A DNA stretch of 32,000 nt, from assembly GCF_000007985.2 (NCBI RefSeq), contig NC_002939.5, positions 2,730,001 to 2,762,000 on the forward strand. Direction: 5' to 3'. A model generated the notes under the pieces. That model saw only the letters and a program-made list of their open reading frames with translations. It made no database searches and was not told the DNA's origin. This stretch comes from Geobacter sulfurreducens PCA. GTDB lineage: Bacteria > Desulfobacterota > Desulfuromonadia > Geobacterales > Geobacteraceae. The position numbers were made by a program, and so were the translations under genes. Below, one piece after another: positions 3,946-31,860 of the stretch (position 1 is its first letter; each line of letters starts with the position of its first letter).

Positions 3946-5334
3946 ATGAACGAGTCAGGTTTTCTCATCGACACCCACGCCCATATCGACGGCCACGACT
4001 TTGCGGCCGATTTCGACGCCATGCTCTCCCGCGCCTGGGAGGCGGGGCTTTCCCACATCGTCACGGTAGGGGCTGACCTGGAGTCCAGCCGGGCCGCAGT
4101 GGCACTGGCCGGCCGCCACGAGCGGATCTGGTGCGCCGTGGGCATCCATCCCCACGACGCGGGGCGGGTGACCGACCGCTGCTACGACGAGATCAGGACC
4201 CTGGCCCAGGGGAACCCCAAGGTGGCGGCCATCGGCGAAATCGGGCTCGACTTCTTCCGGGACCGCTCGCCCCGCGACGAGCAGGAACAGGTCTTCCGCC
4301 GCTTCATCAGGCTGGCCCGGGAACTGGCATTGCCCATCGTGGTGCACGACCGCGACGCCCACGAGCGGGTCATGGCGATCCTGCGCGAGGAAAAGGCCCG
4401 GGACGTGGGTGGCGTGCTCCACTGCTTCTCCGGCGACCTGGCCATGGCCAGGGAATGCGTGGACATGGGCTTCCTGATCTCCATCCCCGGCACCGTCACC
4501 TACCCTTCCAACGAAGCCCTGCGCGAGGTGGTGCGCGGCGTCAAGATCGAGCACCTGCTGGTGGAGACCGACTGTCCCTACCTCACCCCGGTCCCCCACC
4601 GCGGGAAGCGGAACGAGCCGGCCTACGTGCGGCTCACCGCCGAAAAAGTGGCGGAACTGAAAGGGCTCTCCCTGGAGGACGTGGGACGGATCACCTCCCT
4701 CAACGCCCGGCGGCTCTTCGGCATCGGGGAGAGCGACCAGGCGGCCCGGATCGCCTACCGGATCAGGAACTCCCTCTACCTGAACATCACCAACCGCTGC
4801 TCAAACCGCTGTTCCTTCTGCGCCAAGTTCGACGACTACACGGTGAAAGGACACCACCTCCGGCTGGACCACGAGCCGGACAGCGCCGAGGTGCTGGCTG
4901 CCGTCGGTGAGCCGGGGCCGGTGGATGAAATCGTCTTCTGCGGCTTCGGCGAGCCCATGCTCCGCCTCGACCTGATCGTGGAAGTGGCGCGGGAACTGAA
5001 GAAACGCGGCTTCCGCATCCGTATCAACACCGACGGCCAGGCGAACCTGGTCCACGGCCGCAACGTCCTGCCCGAACTGCAAGGCCTGGTGGACTGCATC
5101 TCCGTGAGCCTCAACGCCGCCGACGCCGACACGTACGCCCGCCTCTGCAACACCCCCTTCGGCACCAACGGCTTCAACGGCATCTGCCGGTTCCTGGAAG
5201 AGGCCCGGCTGTACATCCCCACGGTGGTGGCCACGGCCGTTACCGTGCCGGGCATCGACGTGGCCGCCGTGCGCGCCCTGGCCGAGTCCCTCGGCGTCGA
5301 GTTCCGGGAGCGCGAATTTGCCGAGGTGGGGTAA
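3946..5334 (+). CDS. TatD-family metal-dependent hydrolase fused to a small radical SAM domain (TatD-associated rSAM type)
   Basis: 462 aa from ATG 3946 (GGGAAGGA SD). The N-terminal half has TatD motifs (IDTHAHID, GEIGLDF, VVHDRDAH, LHCFSG, VETDCPYLTP). The C-terminal ~195 aa carries CSNRCSFC (Cx3Cx2C, Cys codons at 4798, 4810, 4819) plus a GFGEPML glycine motif. Confidence 0.8.
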   Translation: MNESGFLIDTHAHIDGHDFAADFDAMLSRAWEAGLSHIVTVGADLESSRAAVALAGRHERIWCAVGIHPHDAGRVTDRCYDEIRTLAQGNPKVAAIGEIGLDFFRDRSPRDEQEQVFRRFIRLARELALPIVVHDRDAHERVMAILREEKARDVGGVLHCFSGDLAMARECVDMGFLISIPGTVTYPSNEALREVVRGVKIEHLLVETDCPYLTPVPHRGKRNEPAYVRLTAEKVAELKGLSLEDVGRITSLNARRLFGIGESDQAARIAYRIRNSLYLNITNRCSNRCSFCAKFDDYTVKGHHLRLDHEPDSAEVLAAVGEPGPVDEIVFCGFGEPMLRLDLIVEVARELKKRGFRIRINTDGQANLVHGRNVLPELQGLVDCISVSLNAADADTYARLCNTPFGTNGFNGICRFLEEARLYIPTVVATAVTVPGIDVAAVRALAESLGVEFREREFAEVG

Positions 5335-22747: not shown

Positions 22748-24061
22748 TCATGGCACGGACGTGTGGCATTTGGTGCAGAGCGTCGACTGCTCCGGCGAGA
22801 AGAGCGACGCGGGCCGGTCATAGTACGCCCTGAGGGCTTCCATCTCGCTGCGCCCCTGGCCGTAGGGCTGGTAGGCCTCCCCTTCCTGTGAATACTTGCC
22901 GTTGTAGACCACGTAGGGCGTCTTGGTGTTCCAGCGGGTGGCGCTGTCCCAGCCGCCGGCGTGGGCCCGGTGGCAGGTGAGGCACATGACGCGGGGGGTG
23001 CCGTCCGCGGTGCTGGGCCCCTTGGTGGGGGTGGCCGTCACGATATTCCTCAGCAGGGTGTAGTTGTTGGTTCCCGCCTCGAAGGGGACCAGCGACAGCC
23101 AGGAGGTGGCCTCCACGCCGGACAGGTCCCCGGTCTTGATGTACCGGTTGTAGTAATCCACCATGGCGCCGCCCAGGGGGGCCTCGGTGCCGGCCGGGTG
23201 CACCAGCCCTCCCCCGCTGCCGTCCCGGTGGATGTTCGGGTGACAGTTCCGGCACCACTCGGACATCCCCTGGCCGTAGGCCACGCGGGTCGCGGTGGTG
23301 CTTTCGCTCCGGTTGTAGTCGGCCGGGGCCACCGCCGCCGGGGGTCCGTTGATGAAGGAAAAGGCCGGTCCCAGCGACTTGGGGTAATAGCCGTTCCCCC
23401 CCAGGAGCCGGTAGGCGCCCACGGCCATGGCGGCATCGGGCTCGACGCCGGTGGCGTAGCTCCCCGAGCCCCGGATCGGCTTGCCCGTGACCGCAATGGA
23501 GCCGTCCTGGTCGCGGCGGTAGCGGCCGTGGGGGTCGTGGCAGGCGACGCAGGACAGGCCCGCCGCCGGATAGCTGCCGCCGGGGGCCGTCAGGTGGAGG
23601 GCATCCTGGAGATAGCCGTAGTCCCCCGCCACCACGTTATGGCCGTGCCGGTCCCCCTCGCTGCTCGAAAGCGTCGAGCCAAAGGCCGGAATCCAGGTGT
23701 AGGATTTCCTGAGCCAGCCGAAATCGCCGCCGGGCCCCAGCTGCTTGGGCGGGACCCCGAACGGCATCTCGAACCCCGGCGTGCTCACGTGATAGGAGGT
23801 GGGGCCCACATCCCCCGCCTTCTCGTGACAGTTCAGGCAGGTGGAGCTGGAATCGCCCCCCTTCAGGAGATAGCGGTTGCCCATGCCCACGGGGCGGCCG
23901 TTGGTGGCCACCGCGAAGCCCCCTTCCGAGTTGTGCATGGTGTGACACCCTTCGCACTCGCCCGCGCCCCCTTCGTGAAAGGCGAGGGAACGGCCTGTGG
24001 TGGCCGGCAGCAGTACCGGCAGCACGACCAGGAGCGCAAGTATGGCCTTGGGTGCTTTCAC
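22748..24061 (-). CDS. OmcS-family hexahaem cytochrome c, third paralogue
   Basis: 437 aa. Its GTG start overlaps the upstream stop (GTGA, 24058-24061), with AAGGAA SD. Signal peptide ...GRSLA then FHEGGAGECEGCHTMHNS. Six CXXCH are collinear with OmcS/OmcT, and blocks GPGGDFGWLRKSYTW, VGAYRLLGG, TRVAYGQGMSEWC.NCH and CLTCHRAHAGGWDS are shared. Confidence 0.9.
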   Translation of the reverse strand: MKAPKAILALLVVLPVLLPATTGRSLAFHEGGAGECEGCHTMHNSEGGFAVATNGRPVGMGNRYLLKGGDSSSTCLNCHEKAGDVGPTSYHVSTPGFEMPFGVPPKQLGPGGDFGWLRKSYTWIPAFGSTLSSSEGDRHGHNVVAGDYGYLQDALHLTAPGGSYPAAGLSCVACHDPHGRYRRDQDGSIAVTGKPIRGSGSYATGVEPDAAMAVGAYRLLGGNGYYPKSLGPAFSFINGPPAAVAPADYNRSESTTATRVAYGQGMSEWCRNCHPNIHRDGSGGGLVHPAGTEAPLGGAMVDYYNRYIKTGDLSGVEATSWLSLVPFEAGTNNYTLLRNIVTATPTKGPSTADGTPRVMCLTCHRAHAGGWDSATRWNTKTPYVVYNGKYSQEGEAYQPYGQGRSEMEALRAYYDRPASLFSPEQSTLCTKCHTSVP

Positions 24062-27000
24062 GCCGATTCCTTAATGGGTCGACCCTGGGCCGGGTACGGG
24101 TTGCCGTGCTGCCGGCCCGTCATGGTCGCGATGATTTCCCGCATCCTGCGGACAAATTCCGCCTGGTCCGGAAGCGGCTTGCCGCGCGCCTCCGCCCCGC
24201 TCAACTCCTCGTTGTAGGCAAGCCGGACGGCCTCCATCACCTCGGCGGCCAGCCTTTTGGCCGAGCCATCCCGCCCCCTGCCGTTAATGTCCGCCTGGCC
24301 GATGATCACCCGCTCGTCGCTGTCCACGAAATCAACCACCGTCAGCTCACGGCTGACGCGGCTCATGACCGCGGCAACGTTCACGACGACCCGGCGACCA
24401 GATTCATCTAGCAAGGCCAATGCCAGTTGATCGAGCGGCAGCGGACTGCTCGCCATTTCCTCCAGGTATTCGCTGCGCAGGAACCGCCACGGAGCGAACG
24501 CGGCATAGTTCCCTTCCAGCTCGGAGACCAGGAGGCCGAACCGGGGCGAATCGTAGCGCCCGCCCAGGAAGATGGCCCGGGCCTCCAGGGCCAGGGCCGC
24601 GGCGCGGTCGAGCCTCATCCAGCGGTTCTCCCGGGCGAGCCGGTCCGCCGGCGGCACGCTGTCGTCCAGGTAGGCCAGGACGCTCTCCCGGTGCCGGGCA
24701 AGGGCGTTCACGTTGACCTCCGGCAGCGCTGACTTGCCGGTGGAACGGGGAACCGAGAATTCGAGATAGAGGTTGTCGTCAGTGTTAATTCTACCAGTAC
24801 GGCTGAACCTGTCAGCACCCGCCGTGCCCATGACGAAATAACTCAGCAGGTCGGTGGCGCTCCCCATCTGCACCCGTGCCAGATCGGCGGCCACGGCCGG
24901 CACGGCGATCCGGGCGGCCAGCTCGTCCTCGCTCAGGAGGATGGGGGCGTTGCTGCCGATGAGCATGGCATCCCCCTGGGTCATCCAGACCAGGACGTGG
25001 CGGTAAGCCTGCCGGAAGGTCCGGACCACCGACCTGAGATCGTCGGCGGAAAGATCGTAGAGGGGGAGCCACTGGCACATGATGCCGCCGGCCCGCAGGT
25101 GCTCTGCGGCCAGCTCGAAATACTCGCGGGTGTAGTTGTAGCCGGCGCCGCTCAGCCACGGGTGGATCGGATCGGCGGTGATCACGTCGTAGCGCTCGCC
25201 CGTGGTCGCCAGGTAGTTGCGGCCGTCGCTGAACGCCACCCGCAGCCGGCGGTCTCCGAGCACGCCGTGGTTGTAGGCGGCAAAGGAGCGCGTCACCCCC
25301 AGCACCTTCGGCTCCACCTCGGCCAGCGTCATCTCGGACACGCTCGGGTGGAGCGAAACAGCGCCAAGGGTAATCCCGCTGCCCGCGCCGATCACCAGCA
25401 CCTTGCGCGGGTTGCGGTGCAGAAGCATGGGCAGGTGACCCAGGGCGTACTGGTTCTGAAGGCTCTCATTGTGGTCGGACGCCTCGATCCGGCCGTTGCG
25501 CAGGAACGCCTGGTAGCCCCCCCTGATCCTGATGGAGCTGACGATGGACTGGATTCCCTCGGCGTAATAGAGGACATCGGTGTGCCGCTTGGCCTCGGCA
25601 ATCAGGTCCGGGGTCCTGAACACCTCCGGCTGGTTGGTGCGGTAGATGGCAAAGTACTTGGCGTCCCAGATCCGGGGCATGGTGCCGGCAACGGCCATGA
25701 CGCCGACCACAGCCAGCACGGTGCCCGCCGTGGCCAGCCTGCGGGGGGTGCCACGCAGCAGGCGCGCCAGGATCAACAGGCCGAAACCGGCGTTTACCGT
25801 GGCCAGCAGGTAGAGGGAGCGCTCGATGCCGAAGACCTGGATCAACACGAAACCGCTCACCACGGTGCCGAGAATGGCGCCGATCGTGTTGCAGGTCAGC
25901 ACCTCGCCCACGGCATGCCCCACCTTGCGCCGCCGGCAGGCGTCAAGGGTGCCGGCCAGGGGAAAGGCCACCCCCATGAAAAAGGCCGGGATGAACAGGT
26001 AGGAAAAGACCAGGGCGAAATTGGCGAACTGACGCGCGCGGAACAGGTCGGTGCTTTGCGACAGGAAGAGGTCCTGGAGGAAGAACACCCTGGTGGGAAG
26101 ATCGCGGATGAGAATGGTCACCAGCAGCGCGCTGAGGCCGATCACGATCTGCACCACGCCGAACCCGCCGATCAGCTTGGACACGGGACAGCCCCCCTCC
26201 TCGGGCGGCCGGAGGCGGCGGGCCCACAGGCCATAAGCCCCGCTGCCCGCGGCAATGCCGGTCAGGAAGGCCGCCAGCATCAAAGTGAAGCCGTACACAT
26301 TCGTGCCGATCACGATCCCCAGGACCCGGGTCCAGAGCACCTCGTACCCCAGGGCGCAGAAGCCGCTGACCCCGATCCCCCAGACCACGAGCCCGATGCG
26401 GGCCTTCTCCTCGGGCAGCGTAACAGCGGACAGGGGCGCCGGGGCCTCATCCTCGCCGGCCTCCAGGTACCGGGCCGCCGGGCCCTGGAGCGCGAAGCAG
26501 GCGATGCCCAGCAGCACGTTGACGGTGATCGCGCCGGCCATGGTGTTCGATACCCCGAACCGCCCCAACAGGTAGAATCCGGCCCCAAAACAGCCGGCCA
26601 CCGCGCCGAAGGTGTTCAGGGCGTAGAGGTAGGCCACCCCCCGCCCCACCGCGCGCCGGCCCCGGACCATGAACGCGGCCAGCACCGGCAGGGTCCCCCC
26701 CAGCAGGGTCGTGGGGACGATGAGCGCGATGGCGGCGAGCACGATCCGCAGGGTGAGCAAGGCCACGCGGGGCAGCTGGTGCGAATGCTCGGTCAGCGAC
26801 TCGAAGGAGTAGGCGGGCATCAGGGAATAGAGGTTGAGCAGGGCGATGAAGAGCAGGGCGAAAAAGGCGATGCCGATCTCAAGGGCACCGTAGAGGCGCA
26901 GCAGGTTCCGGGTGGTGCGCACGCGCCGGCCGAAGAGCCAGCTACCCAGGGCAAGCCCCCCCATGACCACGGCCAGCACCGTGGTCACCGCCAGGTGCGA

Positions 27001-27111
27001 GCCGCCGAACACGAGGCTGAGCTTTCTGACCCAGACGACCTCATAGACCAGGGCGGTGGCTCCCGAGAGGAAAAAGATCAGATAGATGAGAGCGGTAATG
27101 AGGATCGGCAT
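24058..27111 (-). CDS. polytopic membrane protein fused to a spermidine-synthase-like (SpeE-fold) domain and an unassigned C-terminal domain
   Basis: About 1017 aa from ATG 27111; the track starts at GTG 27165 and neither start has a good SD. About 480 aa of hydrophobic helices are followed by KVLVIGAGSGITLGAV ... YDVITADPIHPW ... GIMCQWLPLY (class-I SAM/dcSAM fold of SpeE type), then ~330 aa with no motif I recognise. Confidence 0.75.
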   Translation of the reverse strand: MPILITALIYLIFFLSGATALVYEVVWVRKLSLVFGGSHLAVTTVLAVVMGGLALGSWLFGRRVRTTRNLLRLYGALEIGIAFFALLFIALLNLYSLMPAYSFESLTEHSHQLPRVALLTLRIVLAAIALIVPTTLLGGTLPVLAAFMVRGRRAVGRGVAYLYALNTFGAVAGCFGAGFYLLGRFGVSNTMAGAITVNVLLGIACFALQGPAARYLEAGEDEAPAPLSAVTLPEEKARIGLVVWGIGVSGFCALGYEVLWTRVLGIVIGTNVYGFTLMLAAFLTGIAAGSGAYGLWARRLRPPEEGGCPVSKLIGGFGVVQIVIGLSALLVTILIRDLPTRVFFLQDLFLSQSTDLFRARQFANFALVFSYLFIPAFFMGVAFPLAGTLDACRRRKVGHAVGEVLTCNTIGAILGTVVSGFVLIQVFGIERSLYLLATVNAGFGLLILARLLRGTPRRLATAGTVLAVVGVMAVAGTMPRIWDAKYFAIYRTNQPEVFRTPDLIAEAKRHTDVLYYAEGIQSIVSSIRIRGGYQAFLRNGRIEASDHNESLQNQYALGHLPMLLHRNPRKVLVIGAGSGITLGAVSLHPSVSEMTLAEVEPKVLGVTRSFAAYNHGVLGDRRLRVAFSDGRNYLATTGERYDVITADPIHPWLSGAGYNYTREYFELAAEHLRAGGIMCQWLPLYDLSADDLRSVVRTFRQAYRHVLVWMTQGDAMLIGSNAPILLSEDELAARIAVPAVAADLARVQMGSATDLLSYFVMGTAGADRFSRTGRINTDDNLYLEFSVPRSTGKSALPEVNVNALARHRESVLAYLDDSVPPADRLARENRWMRLDRAAALALEARAIFLGGRYDSPRFGLLVSELEGNYAAFAPWRFLRSEYLEEMASSPLPLDQLALALLDESGRRVVVNVAAVMSRVSRELTVVDFVDSDERVIIGQADINGRGRDGSAKRLAAEVMEAVRLAYNEELSGAEARGKPLPDQAEFVRRMREIIATMTGRQHGNPYPAQGRPIKESA

Positions 27112-27187
27112 GGCACGCTCAAACCCCTCGACCGGACAGGCGCCGGAAACCGAGGGGTGTTTCACCGGATAGTGGATCGATTGCTGG

Positions 27188-27227
27188 AAAAAAGGCGGCC
27201 ACGACCGGCCGGAGGCCGGCCGTGACC
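27188..27227 (-). terminator. strong rho-independent terminator immediately after omcT
   Basis: The minus strand reads GGUCACGGCCGG-CCUCCGG-CCGGUCGUGGCC (12-14 bp stem including 2 G-U pairs), then GCC and U6. It starts 20 nt after the omcT stop. Confidence 0.8.
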
Positions 27228-27247
27228 AGAACTACATGACATATGAA

Positions 27248-28540
27248 TCAGTCTTTGGCATGACACTTGTTGCACAGGACCCGTTGATACGGGGCGAAGT
27301 TGGTGGGGGGTCTTCCATAGTACGCCTGCTGCGTTTCGGCAACGGTCCGTCCCTGGGCCTGGGCTGCGTTGGTGACCGGGTCGGGCCACACGGGGTTGCC
27401 TGACGCATCGGCCACGGTCATGAACTCGTTGCCGAGGCCGTACCGCATCATGCTGTCAAAGCCGGATGCGTGGGCGCGGTGGCAGGAGAGGCACATGACC
27501 CGGTCCGTGGAGATGGGGCCGGCAGTTGACGTGGTCTGGGCCTTGAGCGCGTTCAGGTCGTGGGTGTTGTCGCTCTGGAACGGCACCAGCGAGGTGAACG
27601 CCGTATCCACGGCGCCCGTCAGGTTGCCCGACTTCTTGTACGAGTTGTAGATCTGGGCCACGAAGGGGCCAAGGTTCTGATCGGCCGGGTGAACCAGGGT
27701 GCCGAAGGTGGTGTGCATCTGCCCGTGGCAGTTGGCGCACCAGAGGGACATGCTCCGGCCGTAGGCGACCCGCGTGTCGCTGGTGGCTTCCGAGCGGTTG
27801 TAGCTGTTGGGGGCCACGGCGTAGGGGGCCGCGAACATGAAGGCATCGCCGCCGCTCAGGGACTTGGGCTTGTACCCGGCACCGCCCAGGAGGCGATAAA
27901 CGCCGACGGCAGTGGTGGCATCGGGAACAGCGCCGTAGGAGCCGGAGCTCCTGATCGGCTTGCCGGTCTTGGCCTGGACGCCCAGTGAGGTGATCCGGTA
28001 GGTGCCGTGGGGGTCATGGCAGCTGATGCAGCTGAACTGGTTGGCCGGGAAGGGGGTGTTCATGCTCCCCGGGGCCGCGGTGATGGTGCTGTCGGCCACG
28101 TAGTTGTAATCGGCGGCCACGATGTTGTGGCCCTTGCGCTCGCCGTGGCTCCACTCCGTGGCGGCACCGGCGCGCGGCACCCAGCTGTAGGTCTTCTTGA
28201 GCCAGCCGAAATCGCCGCCCGGCGTGAGCTGGAGCGGCGGAGAGCCGGCGGGCATGTCGGCTTCTGCGGTACTGATGTGGTAGCTGCTGGGCCCCGTGTC
28301 ACCGGCATGCTGGTGACAGTTGAGGCACGACGAGCTCTGGTCCGTCCCCTGGAGCAGATAAGGGCCGGTGGTGAACTGGGCAGTAGCGTTGTTCATCTGC
28401 TGGCCGCCCAGGGAGTTGTGCATGGTGTGGCATCCCTCGCACTCTGCCACGCCACCTGAGTGGAAAGCCCATCCCGTGCCGGTTGCGCCGAGAACCAGGA
28501 GCGCCGCTGCTGTGACGGGAAGAGTCTTGAAGCGTTTCAT
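27248..28540 (-). CDS. omcT: hexahaem c-type cytochrome OmcT (OmcS paralogue)
   Basis: 430 aa with AGGAGG SD 6 nt upstream. Signal peptide ...GTGWA then FHSGGVAECEGCHTMHNS, and six CXXCH. It is roughly 88% identical to OmcS over the first ~95 mature residues by my hand count (84/95). Confidence 0.9.
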   Translation of the reverse strand: MKRFKTLPVTAAALLVLGATGTGWAFHSGGVAECEGCHTMHNSLGGQQMNNATAQFTTGPYLLQGTDQSSSCLNCHQHAGDTGPSSYHISTAEADMPAGSPPLQLTPGGDFGWLKKTYSWVPRAGAATEWSHGERKGHNIVAADYNYVADSTITAAPGSMNTPFPANQFSCISCHDPHGTYRITSLGVQAKTGKPIRSSGSYGAVPDATTAVGVYRLLGGAGYKPKSLSGGDAFMFAAPYAVAPNSYNRSEATSDTRVAYGRSMSLWCANCHGQMHTTFGTLVHPADQNLGPFVAQIYNSYKKSGNLTGAVDTAFTSLVPFQSDNTHDLNALKAQTTSTAGPISTDRVMCLSCHRAHASGFDSMMRYGLGNEFMTVADASGNPVWPDPVTNAAQAQGRTVAETQQAYYGRPPTNFAPYQRVLCNKCHAKD

Positions 28541-28590
28541 AAAATACCTCCTGGCGATCTGTGTCGGACTCCGGTTGGCGGTAAGGAGGT

Positions 28591-28620
28591 GCCGGGGCCC
28601 CCTTTCAGGCGGACCCCGGC
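28591..28620 (-). other. GC-rich hairpin in the omcS-omcT intergenic spacer (no U-tract)
   Basis: The minus strand reads GCCGGGGUCC-GCCUGAAAG-GGGGCCCCGGC, about a 10-bp stem, 30 nt after the omcS stop and followed by the omcT SD. It is a candidate partial attenuator or 3'-end stabiliser. Confidence 0.35.
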
Positions 28621-28650
28621 GGAATCACACAACATCAGATTGTGGCAAGA

Positions 28651-29949
28651 TTAGTCCTTGGCGTGGCACTTGTTGCAGAGAGCGCGCTGGTAAGGAGCAA
28701 ACTTGTCAGCAGTACGGCCATAGTAGGCAGCGGTCATCTCGTTGACCGAACGGCCCTGGAGGGACGAGGTATTGGGGTCCGTACCATAGATCGAGTTGCC
28801 GGAAGCATCGGCGATGGTCGTGAACTCGTATGCCAGGTTGAAGCGGGTCATGCTGTCGAAGCCCGAAGCGTGAGCGCGGTGGCAGGAGAGGCAGTTCACG
28901 TTGCTGGTGGCGTCGGCGCCGGTCAGCGCGGTGTCGTCGATCTTGGCGTGACCCTTGAGCACGGTGTAGTCGGCAGTGCCTTCCTCGAACGGAGCAAGGG
29001 ACAGGTAGGCGGAAGCCTGGGTACCGGTCAGGTCGCCGGACTTCTTGTAGGAGTTGTACAGACCGGCGATGGTAGCACCGAACTTGGCGCCGTTGCCGGC
29101 CGGGTGACGCAGGTTGGTCGGGTACGCGCTGTTGTGGATGTCGGTGTGGCAGTTGGCGCACCACTCGGACATGCCCTGGCCGTAGGCAACGCGGGTCTGA
29201 GTCGTAGCTTCCGTCCGGTTGTAGGTGGACGGAGCAACGGCGGCCGGTACCTGGTTGGCGAAGGCATAGGAACCGCTCAGGGACTTGGGCTGGTAGCCGG
29301 TGCCGCCCAGGATGCGGTATGCACCAACGGCGCCCCACGCGGTGGGATCGTTGCTGTTCTGGTAGGAACCGCTGTTCTTGATGGGGAGACCGGTGGTGGC
29401 GATGCTGCCGTCAACAAAACGACGATACTTCCCGTGGGGATCGTGGCAGCTGGAGCAGTGAAGCTGGTTGGCCGGATAGGTACCGCCCGGGGCCGTGGTC
29501 AGGGTGGTGTCGGCAACATAGTTGTAGTCGCCGGCAACGATGTTGTGGCCTTTGCGCTCGCCTTCGCTCGTGTTGAGACCACGAACGTTCCAGGTGTAGG
29601 TCTTCTTCACCCAGCCGAAGTCGCCGCCCGGGGTCATCTGGAGCGGAGCGGTACCGGCAGGCATATCAGCTTCAGCGGTGGAGATGTGGTAGCTGGAAGG
29701 ACCGGTGTCACCGGCGTGCTGGTGGCAGTTCAGACAGGACGAGCTCTGGGTGGCGCCCTGGAGCAGCATGGGGCCGGTGGTGAACTGGGCAGTGGCGCTG
29801 TTCATGACTGCGCCGCCCAGCGAGTTGTGCATCGTGTGGCACCCTTCGCACTCGGCAACGCCGCCGGAGTGGAAAGCGAACGCCGCGGGGGCGCTCATGA
29901 GAAGTGCTGCTGCTGCCACGGAAAGACTTACTTTCATCCCCTTTTTCAT
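28651..29949 (-). CDS. omcS: hexahaem c-type cytochrome OmcS (nanowire-forming subunit)
   Basis: 432 aa from ATG 29949 (GGAGG 5 nt upstream; the track ORF extends a further 50 codons upstream). Signal peptide MKKGMKVSLSVAAAALLMSAPAAFA then FHSGGVAECEGCHTMHNSLGGAVMNSATAQ..., and six CXXCH. I recognise the sequence from memory as G. sulfurreducens OmcS. Confidence 0.95.
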   Translation of the reverse strand: MKKGMKVSLSVAAAALLMSAPAAFAFHSGGVAECEGCHTMHNSLGGAVMNSATAQFTTGPMLLQGATQSSSCLNCHQHAGDTGPSSYHISTAEADMPAGTAPLQMTPGGDFGWVKKTYTWNVRGLNTSEGERKGHNIVAGDYNYVADTTLTTAPGGTYPANQLHCSSCHDPHGKYRRFVDGSIATTGLPIKNSGSYQNSNDPTAWGAVGAYRILGGTGYQPKSLSGSYAFANQVPAAVAPSTYNRTEATTQTRVAYGQGMSEWCANCHTDIHNSAYPTNLRHPAGNGAKFGATIAGLYNSYKKSGDLTGTQASAYLSLAPFEEGTADYTVLKGHAKIDDTALTGADATSNVNCLSCHRAHASGFDSMTRFNLAYEFTTIADASGNSIYGTDPNTSSLQGRSVNEMTAAYYGRTADKFAPYQRALCNKCHAKD

Positions 29950-29950
29950 C

Positions 29951-30060
29951 ATTTCCTCCATTTTGGTTGGTTTCTCCGGCAACCCGGCCGTCCCGCTCCA
30001 GCGGCACCCGTCGGCTTTGTGTCCCCACCTTGCGATGGGTTTACTCTTTTCGGAGGAAAT
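29951..30060 (-). promoter_or_regulatory. GEMM-I (c-di-GMP-I / cGAMP class) riboswitch-like leader with an anti-SD/SD pairing
   Basis: The minus strand 30046->29974 reads GAGUAAAC-CCAUC-GCAA-GGUGG-GGACACAAAGCC-GACGGG...GGCCGGGUUGCCGGAG. This is collinear with the GEMM-I core CAAAC-stem-GNRA-stem-GGACGCAAAGCC ... GCGGGGUUACC as I remember it from Vc2. AUUUCCUCC (30060-30052) is the perfect complement of the omcS SD GGAGGAAAU (29959-29951). Confidence 0.6.
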
Positions 30061-30194
30061 TTGGTTTCGCCTTTCGGCTCGTGAGTGTTGTGCCTGCAAT
30101 GCAATACAAAATGGTCTTCAGTGCATCCCCAGCGTTTTGTGGTCCCTCCACCTCCCCTCCAAGGCGGGATGCCGGCCTGAGTTACGACTCGCGA

Positions 30195-31142
30195 TCAGTC
30201 GTGCGTTACCTTGAATACGCTTACTCCGCGATTGCCGAGCTGACCCACGTAAAGCTTCCCCTCGGCATCGATTGCCAGGTCGTCGGGGCCCACCAGACTG
30301 CCGGGGGCGTCACCGCGACCGCCGAACTCGTAGATGAACTTGAACTGCCGGTCGAACACCAGGATCGCGCATCTGAGCTTGTCGGAGATGTAGTAGTTGC
30401 CCAGGCCGTCAACCGCGATCCCCGTGGGGACTCCGAACTTGCCCGGCGCGCTGCCCCGCTTGCCGAAGGATTCAACCGTGCCGTTCGCCGAGATCCTGAA
30501 CACCTTACCGGTGACCGGCGAGGTAAAGAGCACGCTGCCGTCCGAATCGAAGGCCACTGCGCCGATGCCCGTGTTGAGGCGGTCTTCCTCGGTTACGCTC
30601 GATGCTTCGGCCAGATCGATATGCTTGACGTAGTTCCCTTCCGGATCGAGCATCACGACCATCATGGAACCCAGGCTCACCAGGCAGATCTTGCCGTCCC
30701 TCAGCATGAGCCGGTTCGGCTTGAACGCGGCCAGTTTCTCGGGCAGCCCCTTGAACTCGATGGGCTTGATGGGTTCCGCCCGGTAGTTGCAGAGGAGCAG
30801 GCTGGGCGTGCCGTTGTTGTAGGCCAGGACCAGGATCCGACCCTGCTCGTCGATGGCGGCGTCGTACACGATCCCGGACTCCATGGTGTTGGTGAACCGG
30901 TAGACTTCCATGCCGCTGTTGTTGAATACCTTGACCGTCTCGCCCGAGATCACATAGGTCTCGCGTGCCGTCGCATCAAGGGCGATCTTGGCCAGGCTGT
31001 ACGGAATCGTGCCCGTGAAGTCCGAGAGGTTATACAGATACGCAACCTTGAATTCACCCGTGCTCGCATTGGTGGGTCCACCCATGAGAACGGCGGCGAG
31101 GATGGCCAGCGGTGCTACACGCCGGTTGCCGATTTGTCTCAT
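30195..31142 (-). CDS. NHL-repeat beta-propeller protein (secreted/periplasmic)
   Basis: 315 aa from ATG 31142; the track start 31178 is a TTG. It has a signal-like RRVAPLAILAAVLMGG and NHL blades VPTGIAVDGLGNYYISDKLRCAILVFD and GPDDLAIDAEGKLYVGQLGNRGVSVFKV. Confidence 0.8.
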   Translation of the reverse strand: MRQIGNRRVAPLAILAAVLMGGPTNASTGEFKVAYLYNLSDFTGTIPYSLAKIALDATARETYVISGETVKVFNNSGMEVYRFTNTMESGIVYDAAIDEQGRILVLAYNNGTPSLLLCNYRAEPIKPIEFKGLPEKLAAFKPNRLMLRDGKICLVSLGSMMVVMLDPEGNYVKHIDLAEASSVTEEDRLNTGIGAVAFDSDGSVLFTSPVTGKVFRISANGTVESFGKRGSAPGKFGVPTGIAVDGLGNYYISDKLRCAILVFDRQFKFIYEFGGRGDAPGSLVGPDDLAIDAEGKLYVGQLGNRGVSVFKVTHD

Positions 31143-31329
31143 TCGGGTTTCAATATGTTTGCACAGGTGGTTAATCAAGTTTCGCCTCTAGCGACTGCCA
31201 GCAAAATGTGTTTGTTTTCTCGTGATTTAGCACAGCGCATGCCTAAGCATTTTTTAACAGTGGTAACAAATTTGTATCTAACGGTAATTGTTCGCTTTTT
31301 AAAATAATTAAGATTTTTTGTTGAAAGCA

Positions 31330-31860
31330 ACCGGGCAAATCGCGGCCATTTGGCGAAAACGCACTGCTATTTGGCCGTAAAACCACTACCGGATCGGACC
31401 ATGTGGCACAACCACCTGTCCTGACTGGCTTTCTGCCGAGCCGCCCGGGTGGCCGAAGGTATCGGTGAAGTCACCGGAAGGGGTGCGTCAGGCACGAAAC
31501 CGGCGCGTGACACTTACGCATGGAGCGAGAGAACGCGGGAGCGGCCCGCCGGGCTGGATCGAGGGCCGCTGCGGGCGCGGGGACGGCGGAACAAGGGGGA
31601 CGGCCGGTGCATCGGGATGCCCGCCACGCCTTGGCAAGAGGATCGACGGGAGCCGCGCGCGGGGCTACCCTCGCCTTTCTGCGGCGCAAATCGGCCGGCC
31701 TGCGCCGACAGCCTTCCCGTGGGGGGAACAACGGGGTTCCCGGGGGGGTACACCCGGTGTGGTGGTGGGGGGAATATGATGGGGGGTTCGTTAGGGGATG
31801 TTACACTTTTCAGGGTCTTGCCGGGGGCGTTGCAACGGTGAACTATGCGGGGTGTCAAAC
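31330..31860. other. GC-rich island without a credible ORF, flanked by AT-rich tracts; candidate structured RNA or long leader
   Basis: Only overlapping Arg/Gly/Pro-rich ORFs in several frames, with atypical codons (GGG, CGA, AGA, AGG). Many local stems are present, e.g. AGCGGCCC 31540-31547 with GGGCCGCT 31563-31570, and CGGCGCA 31682-31688 with TGCGCCG 31701-31707. Six runs of four or more G occur at 31721-31797. Confidence 0.3.

Follow-up and report, generated by a model that had tools for sequence, protein, structure and literature searches.

Translational ON control is the logic of the add adenine riboswitch from Vibrio vulnificus: in the free RNA its Shine-Dalgarno sequence (SD) is paired with a strand of the aptamer, and ligand-induced folding releases it. 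The switch described here, in the leader of the cytochrome gene omcS of Geobacter sulfurreducens, would resemble add in mechanism only, in that neither would need a terminator; add belongs to an unrelated aptamer class and binds an unrelated ligand.

By aptamer, the described systems closest to the omcS element are Vc2 and Gs1761. Vc2, from the tfoY/VC1722 leader of Vibrio cholerae, has the same aptamer architecture and likewise a P1 helix whose stability is central to switching, and it is reported to act on translation by masking the ribosome-binding site (Inuzuka 2018, as cited in PMC9262584). It carries G20, binds c-di-GMP and is described as a translational OFF switch whose ribosome-binding site lies far from the aptamer, whereas the omcS switch has an A at the G20-equivalent position, an SD 14 nt from P1 and, as we propose below, ON logic. 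Gs1761 (pgcA, GSU1761; 4YAZ/4YB0) is closer in several respects: it shares its fold family, its organism and the GacA/cGAMP regulon with the omcS switch, has an A at the G20-equivalent (A14), and its expression is turned on by its ligand. The two differ in that Gs1761 is described as highly cGAMP-selective and as based on a terminator and antiterminator (Hallberg 2019), whereas the omcS switch is bispecific by report, has no terminator, and has a P1 5′ strand that appears to double as an anti-SD. Expression of omcST depends on the cGAMP synthase GacA, and omcST is placed in the GacA/cGAMP regulon (Hallberg 2019). Published accounts that we consulted treat the Geobacter GEMM-Ib switches as transcriptional, which speaks against the translational output proposed below.

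The omcS locus and its prior record

The window is the whole stretch of DNA that was analysed, 32,000 nt of the G. sulfurreducens PCA genome (NC_002939.5, positions 2,730,001 to 2,762,000). All coordinates below are window positions unless stated otherwise, and the leader is read on the minus strand. The gene that the leader precedes is:

28651-29949, minus strand: omcS coding sequence, 432 aa plus stop, with its AUG at 29949-29947 (open reading frame list and identity to OmcS structures)

Residues 26-432 of this ORF are identical to the "C-type cytochrome OmcS" of PDB 6EF8/6NEF. The mature product is thus the protein of the solved structure, and the placement of the element in the omcS leader, made in an initial annotation from the sequence alone, is correct; the end of the aptamer lies 26 nt from the omcS start. 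An NHL/beta-propeller-like ORF (31178-30195) stands ahead of omcS, an OmcT-like paralogue (28540-27248) follows it, and a strong terminator-like hairpin (27228-27196) comes after omcT. An Rfam scan found no second riboswitch before omcT, even at E <= 1.

The element itself is not new. OmcS was among the G. sulfurreducens cytochrome genes linked to the GEMM motif by Weinberg (2007), and the supplementary table of Hallberg (2019) lists GSUR3014, annotated as a "cyclic diguanylate-responsive riboswitch" upstream of GSU2504 (omcS), with feature coordinates 2765927-2766046. When the omcS start in that table (2765937) is set equal to 29949, GSUR3014 falls on window positions 29939-30058, very nearly the interval of the initial annotation, and the omcS lengths agree. 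What we describe is the known GEMM-I-family riboswitch of the omcS-omcT operon, GSUR3014, whose link to OmcS dates from 2007. Its novelty is low, and the added value of the present analysis lies in the expression platform and in the conservation of that platform across lineages and ligand types. In the literature accessible to us, which did not extend to the 2015 PNAS primary reports, we found no description of the omcS expression platform, nor one of the distribution of G, A and C over it that is given below, and we do not claim priority for either.

As to the 5′ end of the transcript, neither a sigma-70 scan nor relaxed scans for sigma-70 and sigma-54 gave a convincing site in 30040-30420; that the mRNA includes position 30060 is suggested by conservation and by the RNA-seq coverage of the annotated feature.

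The aptamer and its ligand-selecting base

The initial annotation had recognised a GEMM-I-class aptamer, and a scan with RF01051 (c-di-GMP-I, GEMM-I), run as it had suggested, bears this out: the model aligns over its full length (positions 1-87), with one non-canonical pair, to minus-strand positions 30055-29975 of the window. The score is 57.1 bits (E 8e-9), where gathering requires 35. This was the sole Rfam match at gathering score in the whole 32-kb window, and a looser Rfam scan of 27000-31400 returned nothing further of relevance. The minus strand from 30062 downwards reads ...AAAUUUCCUCCGAAAAGAGUAAACCCAUCGCAAGGUGGGGACACAAAGCCGACGGGUGCCGCUGGAGCGGGACGGCCGGGUUGCCGGAGAAACCAACCAAAAUGGAGGAAAUGAUGAAAAAG..., and the individual sequence elements that had been quoted are all found there at their minus-strand coordinates. 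The parts of the aptamer are, from 5′ to 3′:

29975-30055, minus strand: GEMM-I aptamer (c-di-GMP-I, RF01051), by covariance-model match
30051-30055, minus strand: P1 5′ strand CUCCG, pairing with CGGAG at 29978-29974
30045, minus strand: A30045, equivalent of Vc2 G20, the contact of the first ligand base and the GEMM-Ib signature (RF01051 alignment column 11)
30019-30044, minus strand: first arm, with G30044:C30019, U30043:A30020, an AAA internal loop, a 6-bp stem and a GCAA tetraloop (covariance-model structure line)
30024-30039, minus strand: first-arm hairpin CCCAUC-GCAA-GGUGGG (stem 30039-30034/30029-30024, tetraloop 30033-30030), also predicted by RNAfold
30011-30020, minus strand: ACACAAAGCC, as read in the sequence
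30018, minus strand: A30018, equivalent of Vc2 A47 (covariance-model alignment)
29981-30016, minus strand: second arm with inner hairpin CCGC-UGGA-GCGG (covariance-model alignment)
29979, minus strand: C29979, equivalent of Vc2 C92 (covariance-model alignment)
29974-29978, minus strand: P1 3′ strand CGGAG, from the sequence and the leader comparison; GGCCGGGUUGCCGGAG ends at 29974

The two-arm GEMM-I architecture is complete, with a first arm of 2 bp plus 6 bp around the AAA internal loop, a GNRA-type loop (GCAA), an AAA-containing joiner, a second arm and P1, and by every criterion that can be tested on the sequence the omcS-leader element is a GEMM-I member. In close relatives the loop of the second arm differs (CUGG, CAGG or GCGA) and its stem is retained. 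In Vc2, A47 is the base that intercalates between the two bases of the ligand; an A stands at the corresponding position here. The numbering and roles that we use for the A47 and C92 ligand contacts of Vc2 follow PMC6140456 in part.

We also considered the variant described by RF03167 (c-di-GMP-I-GGC), in which a G replaces the A47-equivalent (consensus GCGAA rather than GCAAA). It was rejected for the omcS leader, which scores 50.8 bits with that model, under the gathering score of 59, and which has the A. Nor can the RF03167 label be taken as a call of ligand class among the OmcS-family leaders compared below: many of them score best with RF03167, yet those that could be parsed carry an A at this position (28 of the first 29 leaders, the remaining one being unparsed, and with the RF03167-labelled ones of that set included).

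The base that bears on the choice of ligand is A30045. Column 11 of the RF01051 alignment is an unpaired base whose 3′ neighbours form the two opening pairs of the first arm (G:C and C:G), and the covariance-model alignment sets Vc2 G20, G21:C46 and C22:G45 against A30045, G30044:C30019 and U30043:A30020, the last of these being a compensatory change from C:G to U:A. In the initial annotation a G had been read at the G20-equivalent; the number G20 had been put on the wrong G, and the hand alignment made at that time (GAGU against GGGC) likewise sets an A opposite the middle G. The ligand had accordingly been left uncalled, whereas an A at the G20-equivalent allows the ligand class to be called as GEMM-Ib type: cGAMP-binding GEMM-Ib aptamers have adenine in place of G20 (in Gs1761 it is A14), with several natural examples that accept either ligand (PMC6140456). 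Judged by this base, the omcS aptamer carries the GEMM-Ib (cGAMP-type) signature. The signature agrees with membership of the cGAMP regulon and with the reported bispecificity, the OmcST riboswitch being described as sensitive to both cGAMP and c-di-GMP (Hallberg 2019, citing Kellenberger 2015). On that description, the omcS switch is a bispecific member of GEMM-Ib and not a selective one.

The expression platform in the window

Downstream and immediately upstream of the aptamer, three segments make up the putative expression platform:

30052-30060, minus strand: anti-SD AUUUCCUCC, whose 3′ part (30055-30052) lies in the P1 5′ strand; exact complement of 29959-29951
29960-29973, minus strand: 14-nt A/C-rich linker (AGAAACCAACCAAAAU region), free of hairpins and U-tracts
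29951-29959, minus strand: Shine-Dalgarno GGAGG (29959-29955) plus AAAU, together GGAGGAAAU, the predicted target of the anti-SD (sequence and fold)

Two pairings that the initial annotation had pointed out are both present. The 9 nt at 30060-30052 are exactly complementary to 29959-29951, as it had said of the anti-SD, and the alternative closure of the aptamer by CUCCG:CGGAG forms P1, which is conserved and covaries across related leaders. Positions 30055-30052 are common to P1 and to the anti-SD:SD helix, so the two pairings are mutually exclusive. P1 (C30055-G30051 with C29978-G29974) ends 14 nt ahead of the SD GGAGG, and the linker between them is C-rich and G-poor (GAAACCAACCAAAAU). A terminator scan found no terminator-like site in 29700-30400.

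Folding calculations favour the masked arrangement. In the lowest-energy fold predicted by RNAfold for 30075-29930, AUUUCCUCC and GGAGGAAAU form a 9-bp helix within which the local hairpins of the aptamer are kept, and in the predicted ligand-free ensemble the bases of the SD are paired with probabilities of 0.95-1.0. Taken in isolation, the anti-SD:SD helix is predicted at -11.8 to -13.3 kcal/mol and the P1 helix at -6.1 kcal/mol, and forcing P1 to form costs a predicted 5.4-6.1 kcal/mol, an amount that a nanomolar ligand could plausibly supply; these are nearest-neighbour energies, in which tertiary contacts are ignored. The canonical SD extension matching 16S rRNA is GGAGGUGAU, and the bases that follow GGAGG here fit the anti-SD of the leader instead. 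Of 20000 dinucleotide-preserving shuffles, 120 (0.6%) gave perfect complementarity over 9 nt or more between the 95 upstream nucleotides and a 23-nt segment around the SD and the start codon. By itself the 9-nt match is thus unusual but not overwhelming; at the level of sequence, it is the comparative data that make it secure.

Comparison of OmcS-family leaders

When species-representative genomes were scanned with OmcS, 78 loci at 50-65% identity and none above 65% were returned; Rfam models found 29 GEMM-I-clan aptamers in these loci. A protein search for closer relatives (64-95% identity) added ten more loci, all ten with an aptamer. Counting the window's own aptamer and both copies of locus L046, all 38 aptamers stand directly before a full-length OmcS-family ORF of 45-95% identity. 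Nearly all of these leaders follow a common layout: [N]AUCCUCCG, aptamer, CCGGAG, a linker of 7-24 nt, GGAGGAU[N], 4-10 nt and AUG. The linker from aptamer to SD is 7-24 nt long in all 37 leaders (that of the window and 36 related ones), which leaves no room for a terminator between the two.

In these leaders, as in the window, the P1 5′ strand is complementary both to the P1 3′ strand and to the SD, and both of the mutually exclusive helices are conserved in about 35 of them. P1 is paired in 95.9% of cells across 34 leaders and shows a compensatory change to CUCUG:CAGAG in L046, L083 and L084. For the nine-pair anti-SD:SD helix, 86.9% of cells are paired across 34 distinct leaders as against 40-51% for slid partners; the motifs themselves served as anchors for the aligned segments. 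The helix has a covariation score of 0.199 in the 34 leaders against 0.124 +/- 0.013 for shuffles, none of 500 of which matched it; this covariation is carried by two or three flanking pairs only, and several of the variants recur among related sequences, so that the independent events behind it are modest in number. The core CCUCC:GGAGG may be kept for separate reasons, P1 constraining one strand and 16S rRNA its partner. When each leader's own 5′ and SD segments are paired, the mean energy is -12.64 kcal/mol, compared with -11.31 +/- 0.26 kcal/mol when the partners are permuted, and none of 20000 permutations was as good.

The flanking pairs take several forms. Most leaders have AU:AU, whereas L032, L045, L061, L066 and L076 have CU:AG, the window and its close relatives have AUUU:AAAU, L006 has ACGC:GCGU (with a bulge) and L088 has UUUAU:GUGAA; the eighth pair of the helix occurs as C:G, A:U, G.U, U:A and U.G. 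The leaders of OmcS genes 90-95% identical to omcS are near-identical to that in the window, adding conservation and no covariation. Since 16S rRNA would favour the canonical extension rather than GGAGGAU, it is the leader, rather than the ribosome, that accounts for the SD extension common to these genes. In the unconstrained lowest-energy fold the SD core is masked by the anti-SD in 34 of 37 leaders, and the masked state is predicted to be more stable than the P1 state in 35 of 37, by a median of 6.3 kcal/mol; the helix is missing from L063 and stands in a shifted register in L053 and L054.

Proposed mechanism

We consider it probable, from the sequence comparison, that the omcS leader is a translational ON switch that works by strand exchange, with the SD unmasked on ligand binding. 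In the absence of ligand, the extended 5′ strand of P1 (AUUUCCUCC[G]) would pair with the SD region GGAGGAAAU over 9-10 bp, in a helix that would span the whole aptamer and hide the ribosome-binding site. Binding of cGAMP (or c-di-GMP) would stabilise the three-helix junction and P1 (CUCCG:CGGAG), the CCUCC segment would be drawn off the SD, and ribosomes could then start on omcS. Both strands of P1 are transcribed before the SD, so ligand present during transcription could trap the ON fold; the lengths of the helices would also permit equilibration later. We infer that this equilibrium is shifted when ligand binds, with translation initiation as the output. A secondary effect at the RNA level is possible, through Rho or through decay of untranslated RNA, and would account for the small changes in RNA that are described below. 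Translational ON logic had already been put forward in the initial annotation, and the comparison favours it: the leaders conserve two exclusive helices, covary beyond the SD core, leave no room for a terminator between aptamer and SD and are masked in 34 of 37 predicted folds.

Published RNA levels are compatible with such an output. For the wild type, the esnD deletion strain and the gacA deletion strain, in that order, the supplementary table of Hallberg (2019) gives the omcS leader values of 24, 36 and 17 (log2 +0.58 and -0.50 for the two deletions) and the omcS ORF values of 22, 29 and 15 (log2 +0.40 and -0.55). With gacA deleted, omcT falls from 9 to 4. The response of omcST RNA to loss of gacA is the weakest in the regulon (Hallberg 2019). 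In the gacA deletion strain, the tandem riboswitch operon of GSU2885 steps down from -2.0 (first leader) to -3.5 (second leader) and -4.8 (gene), and GSU2515 from -1.4 (leader) to -2.3 (gene); members of the regulon that fall stepwise in this way have been read as showing increased termination (Hallberg 2019). For omcS, leader and ORF change in step and by little, which is the pattern of a switch that has no transcriptional decision point. Expression of omcS was low in that RNA-seq experiment (value 22), so this argument is only suggestive.

Alternative explanations

The same aptamer could have a transcriptional output, with ligand preventing an intrinsic terminator as described for pgcA (GSU1761). 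The omcS leader has no place for such a device: the stretch from the aptamer to the start codon contains no stem with a U-tract, none was found anywhere in 29700-30400, and the linker is only 14 nt here and 7-24 nt in the 37 leaders. On the missing terminator and the linker length we reject this model, which we regard as very improbable; the equal RNA changes of leader and ORF (log2 -0.50 and -0.55) also speak against it. A different possibility, unlikely in our judgement, is that masking of the SD is real and that the main step is nevertheless the fate of the mRNA, masked omcS RNA being terminated by Rho or degraded so that the readout is RNA abundance. In other systems translational riboswitches are known to be coupled to termination by Rho, the C-rich, G-poor linker of the omcS leader would suit it, and omcS and omcT RNA are 1.5- to 2.2-fold lower without GacA. 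This RNA effect is, however, the smallest in the regulon, and the leader falls as much as the ORF, which is at odds with termination or decay limited to the ORF.

It could also be argued that the anti-SD:SD complementarity is a by-product of P1 and of a strong SD, and that translation is constitutive or controlled elsewhere. The five core pairs can indeed be explained by two independent constraints, and a 9-nt match does arise in 0.6% of shuffles. Against this, the flanking bases covary (AU:AU, CU:AG, AUUU:AAAU, ACGC:GCGU), the SD extension GGAGGAU fits the leader rather than 16S rRNA, and the matched pairs are better than all 20000 permutations. Moreover, P1 is near-invariant in OmcS-family leaders though free to differ family-wide, and the fold masks the SD in 34 of the 37 leaders. 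We regard mere coincidence of this kind as most improbable, and prefer the translational ON switch by strand exchange.

A possible wider OmcS-family cassette

The OmcS-family loci come from contigs labelled Geobacterales, Desulfuromonadales, Desulfobulbales and Nitrospirota, among others. Over their leaders the ligand-selecting position is G in 20, A in 15 and C in 2, and the A20 versions are found in contigs labelled Nitrospirota, Deferrimicrobium and Geobacterales. Tentatively, and with rather less confidence than we have in the strand exchange itself, we suggest that the omcS leader belongs to a widespread OmcS-family cassette in which a fixed translational ON platform is combined with a varying ligand base and in which an upstream module forms a further layer. 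With the platform fixed and the ligand base differing, different lineages would wire OmcS to c-di-GMP, to cGAMP and possibly to another dinucleotide.

The upstream module is conserved and has three components: a perfect SD-like AAAGGAGGUG approximately 85-130 nt upstream, a tract rich in purines, and a small GC hairpin. In the window, GGAGG repeats lie at 30160-30145 and the hairpin at 30078-30069. It could be a ribosome standby site or some other, unrecognised layer. For the GGAGGUG motif we found no conserved start codon 4-12 nt downstream at a consistent position, no complementarity to the anti-SD beyond the five core bases and no common local fold, and RNAalifold predicted no pairs in an alignment of seven upstream regions.

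Published accounts of the Geobacter GEMM-Ib regulon rest on RNA abundance, and omcST is the member that responds least. If the switch is translational, a weak RNA response is to be expected and the real control would be visible only at the level of protein or ribosomes; if the cassette reading is true, the published RNA-level data underestimate the control of OmcS by cyclic dinucleotides. A single platform that carries G20 and A20 aptamers in many lineages would be a natural series in which to set ligand specificity against output. OmcS makes up conductive cytochrome filaments of Geobacter, and how it is switched bears on extracellular electron transfer and on its bioelectrochemical uses.

Elements upstream of the aptamer

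A small GC-rich hairpin lies about 8–12 nt 5′ of the anti-SD (the segment complementary to the omcS Shine–Dalgarno sequence) in the window and in many of the other leaders that we compared, which come from loci with OmcS homologues (L-numbers). The window copy is:

30078-30069, minus strand: GCC-GAAA-GGC hairpin

Elsewhere (for example L039, L033, L021, L042, L047-L049, L053, L057, L068, L071, L006 and L015) the stem has 5–8 bp. Because these hairpins hold the same position while their stem sequences differ, the comparison suggests both that the hairpin is a conserved structural element and that the transcripts start 5′ of the anti-SD. Two leaders also contain matches to a sigma-54-type promoter (UGGCAU-N5-UUGC), at ~780-795 in L008 and ~440-455 in L063, respectively 41 and 33 nt 5′ of the G of P1, the helix that closes the aptamer; if functional, these would place the transcription start just 5′ of the anti-SD position. 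No match of this kind was found in the window between 30040 and 30420.

Farther upstream, 83–133 nt 5′ of P1, roughly two thirds of the OmcS-family leaders carry a perfect SD-like motif, (A-rich)GGAGGUG(A/G), for which the window has the following region and copies:

30160-30145, minus strand: SD-like upstream motif region
30160, minus strand: GGAGG
30155-30149, minus strand: GGAGGUG
30149, minus strand: GGAGG

The motif is found at equivalent positions in L001, L004, L021, L039, L053, L054, L061 and L065, and also in L066, L068, L071 and L083-L088. An upstream ORF on the same strand usually ends 20–40 nt before it, and a purine-rich tract often follows on its 3′ side. Across the leaders we looked for a start codon at constant spacing after the motif, for extended complementarity between the motif and the anti-SD, and for a common fold around it, and found none of these. 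The motif may let ribosomes stand by upstream of the omcS-type start, or it may act in a different kind of control. Short purine-rich tandem repeats occur between the motif and the hairpin in L021 (~1150-1240; units AGUAAGA/AGUAAAA) and L071 (~880-960; GCAGUAA).

The omcS–omcT region and gene neighborhood

Two features 3′ of omcS, which is followed by its paralogue omcT, are considered here:

28619-28546, minus strand: omcS–omcT intergenic region
24058-27165, minus strand: 1035-aa ORF, 3′ of omcT

The intergenic region contains a strong GC hairpin (GCCGGGGUCC...GGCCCCGGC) that lacks a U-tract, followed directly by ACCUCCU (28590-28584), the exact complement of the omcT SD, AGGAGGU (28552-28546). 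Since the lowest-energy fold pairs the omcT SD region elsewhere rather than with ACCUCCU, possible separate translational control of omcT is only a lead. Beyond omcT, the neighborhood appears to be conserved between the window and L083 and L084, because in those loci the OmcS homologue is followed, at the corresponding position, by large genes: they encode ~1007-1008 aa proteins with a spermine/spermidine synthase domain (PF01564), and the window ORF is matched to them by place.

In L046, two copies of the riboswitch (2320-2404 and 4168-4252) lie 1.85 kb apart on one contig, each with its own OmcS-family gene. The copies are identical across the stretches compared (flanks, aptamer ends and downstream ORF), and the pair appears to have arisen recently, by tandem duplication of the entire cassette.

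Ligand-selecting position

For many leaders (L004, L006, L032, L033, L035, L039 and others), the best-scoring Rfam model was c-di-GMP-I-GGC (RF03167). Within the set of the first 29 leaders, however, the ones with this label that could be parsed carry A rather than G where Vc2 has A47, so for RF03167-labelled leaders the cmscan family label is an unreliable call of ligand class. At the G20 equivalent, two OmcS-family leaders (L008:820-905 and L086:1086-1172, from Geobacter sp. L1geo and a contig encoding a Geobacter sp. DSM 9736 protein) have C, with the remaining aptamer and the platform normal; we know of no ligand assignment for a C20 GEMM-I variant. A20, the GEMM-Ib-type signature, is found before OmcS-family genes in L021, L042 and L071 (labelled Nitrospirota) and in L045 (Candidatus Deferrimicrobium), these names being metagenome-bin taxon labels taken as given. 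Because these A20 aptamers lie outside the Geobacter and Desulfuromonas lineages, their sequences hint that cGAMP-type control of OmcS-family cytochromes extends beyond Geobacter.
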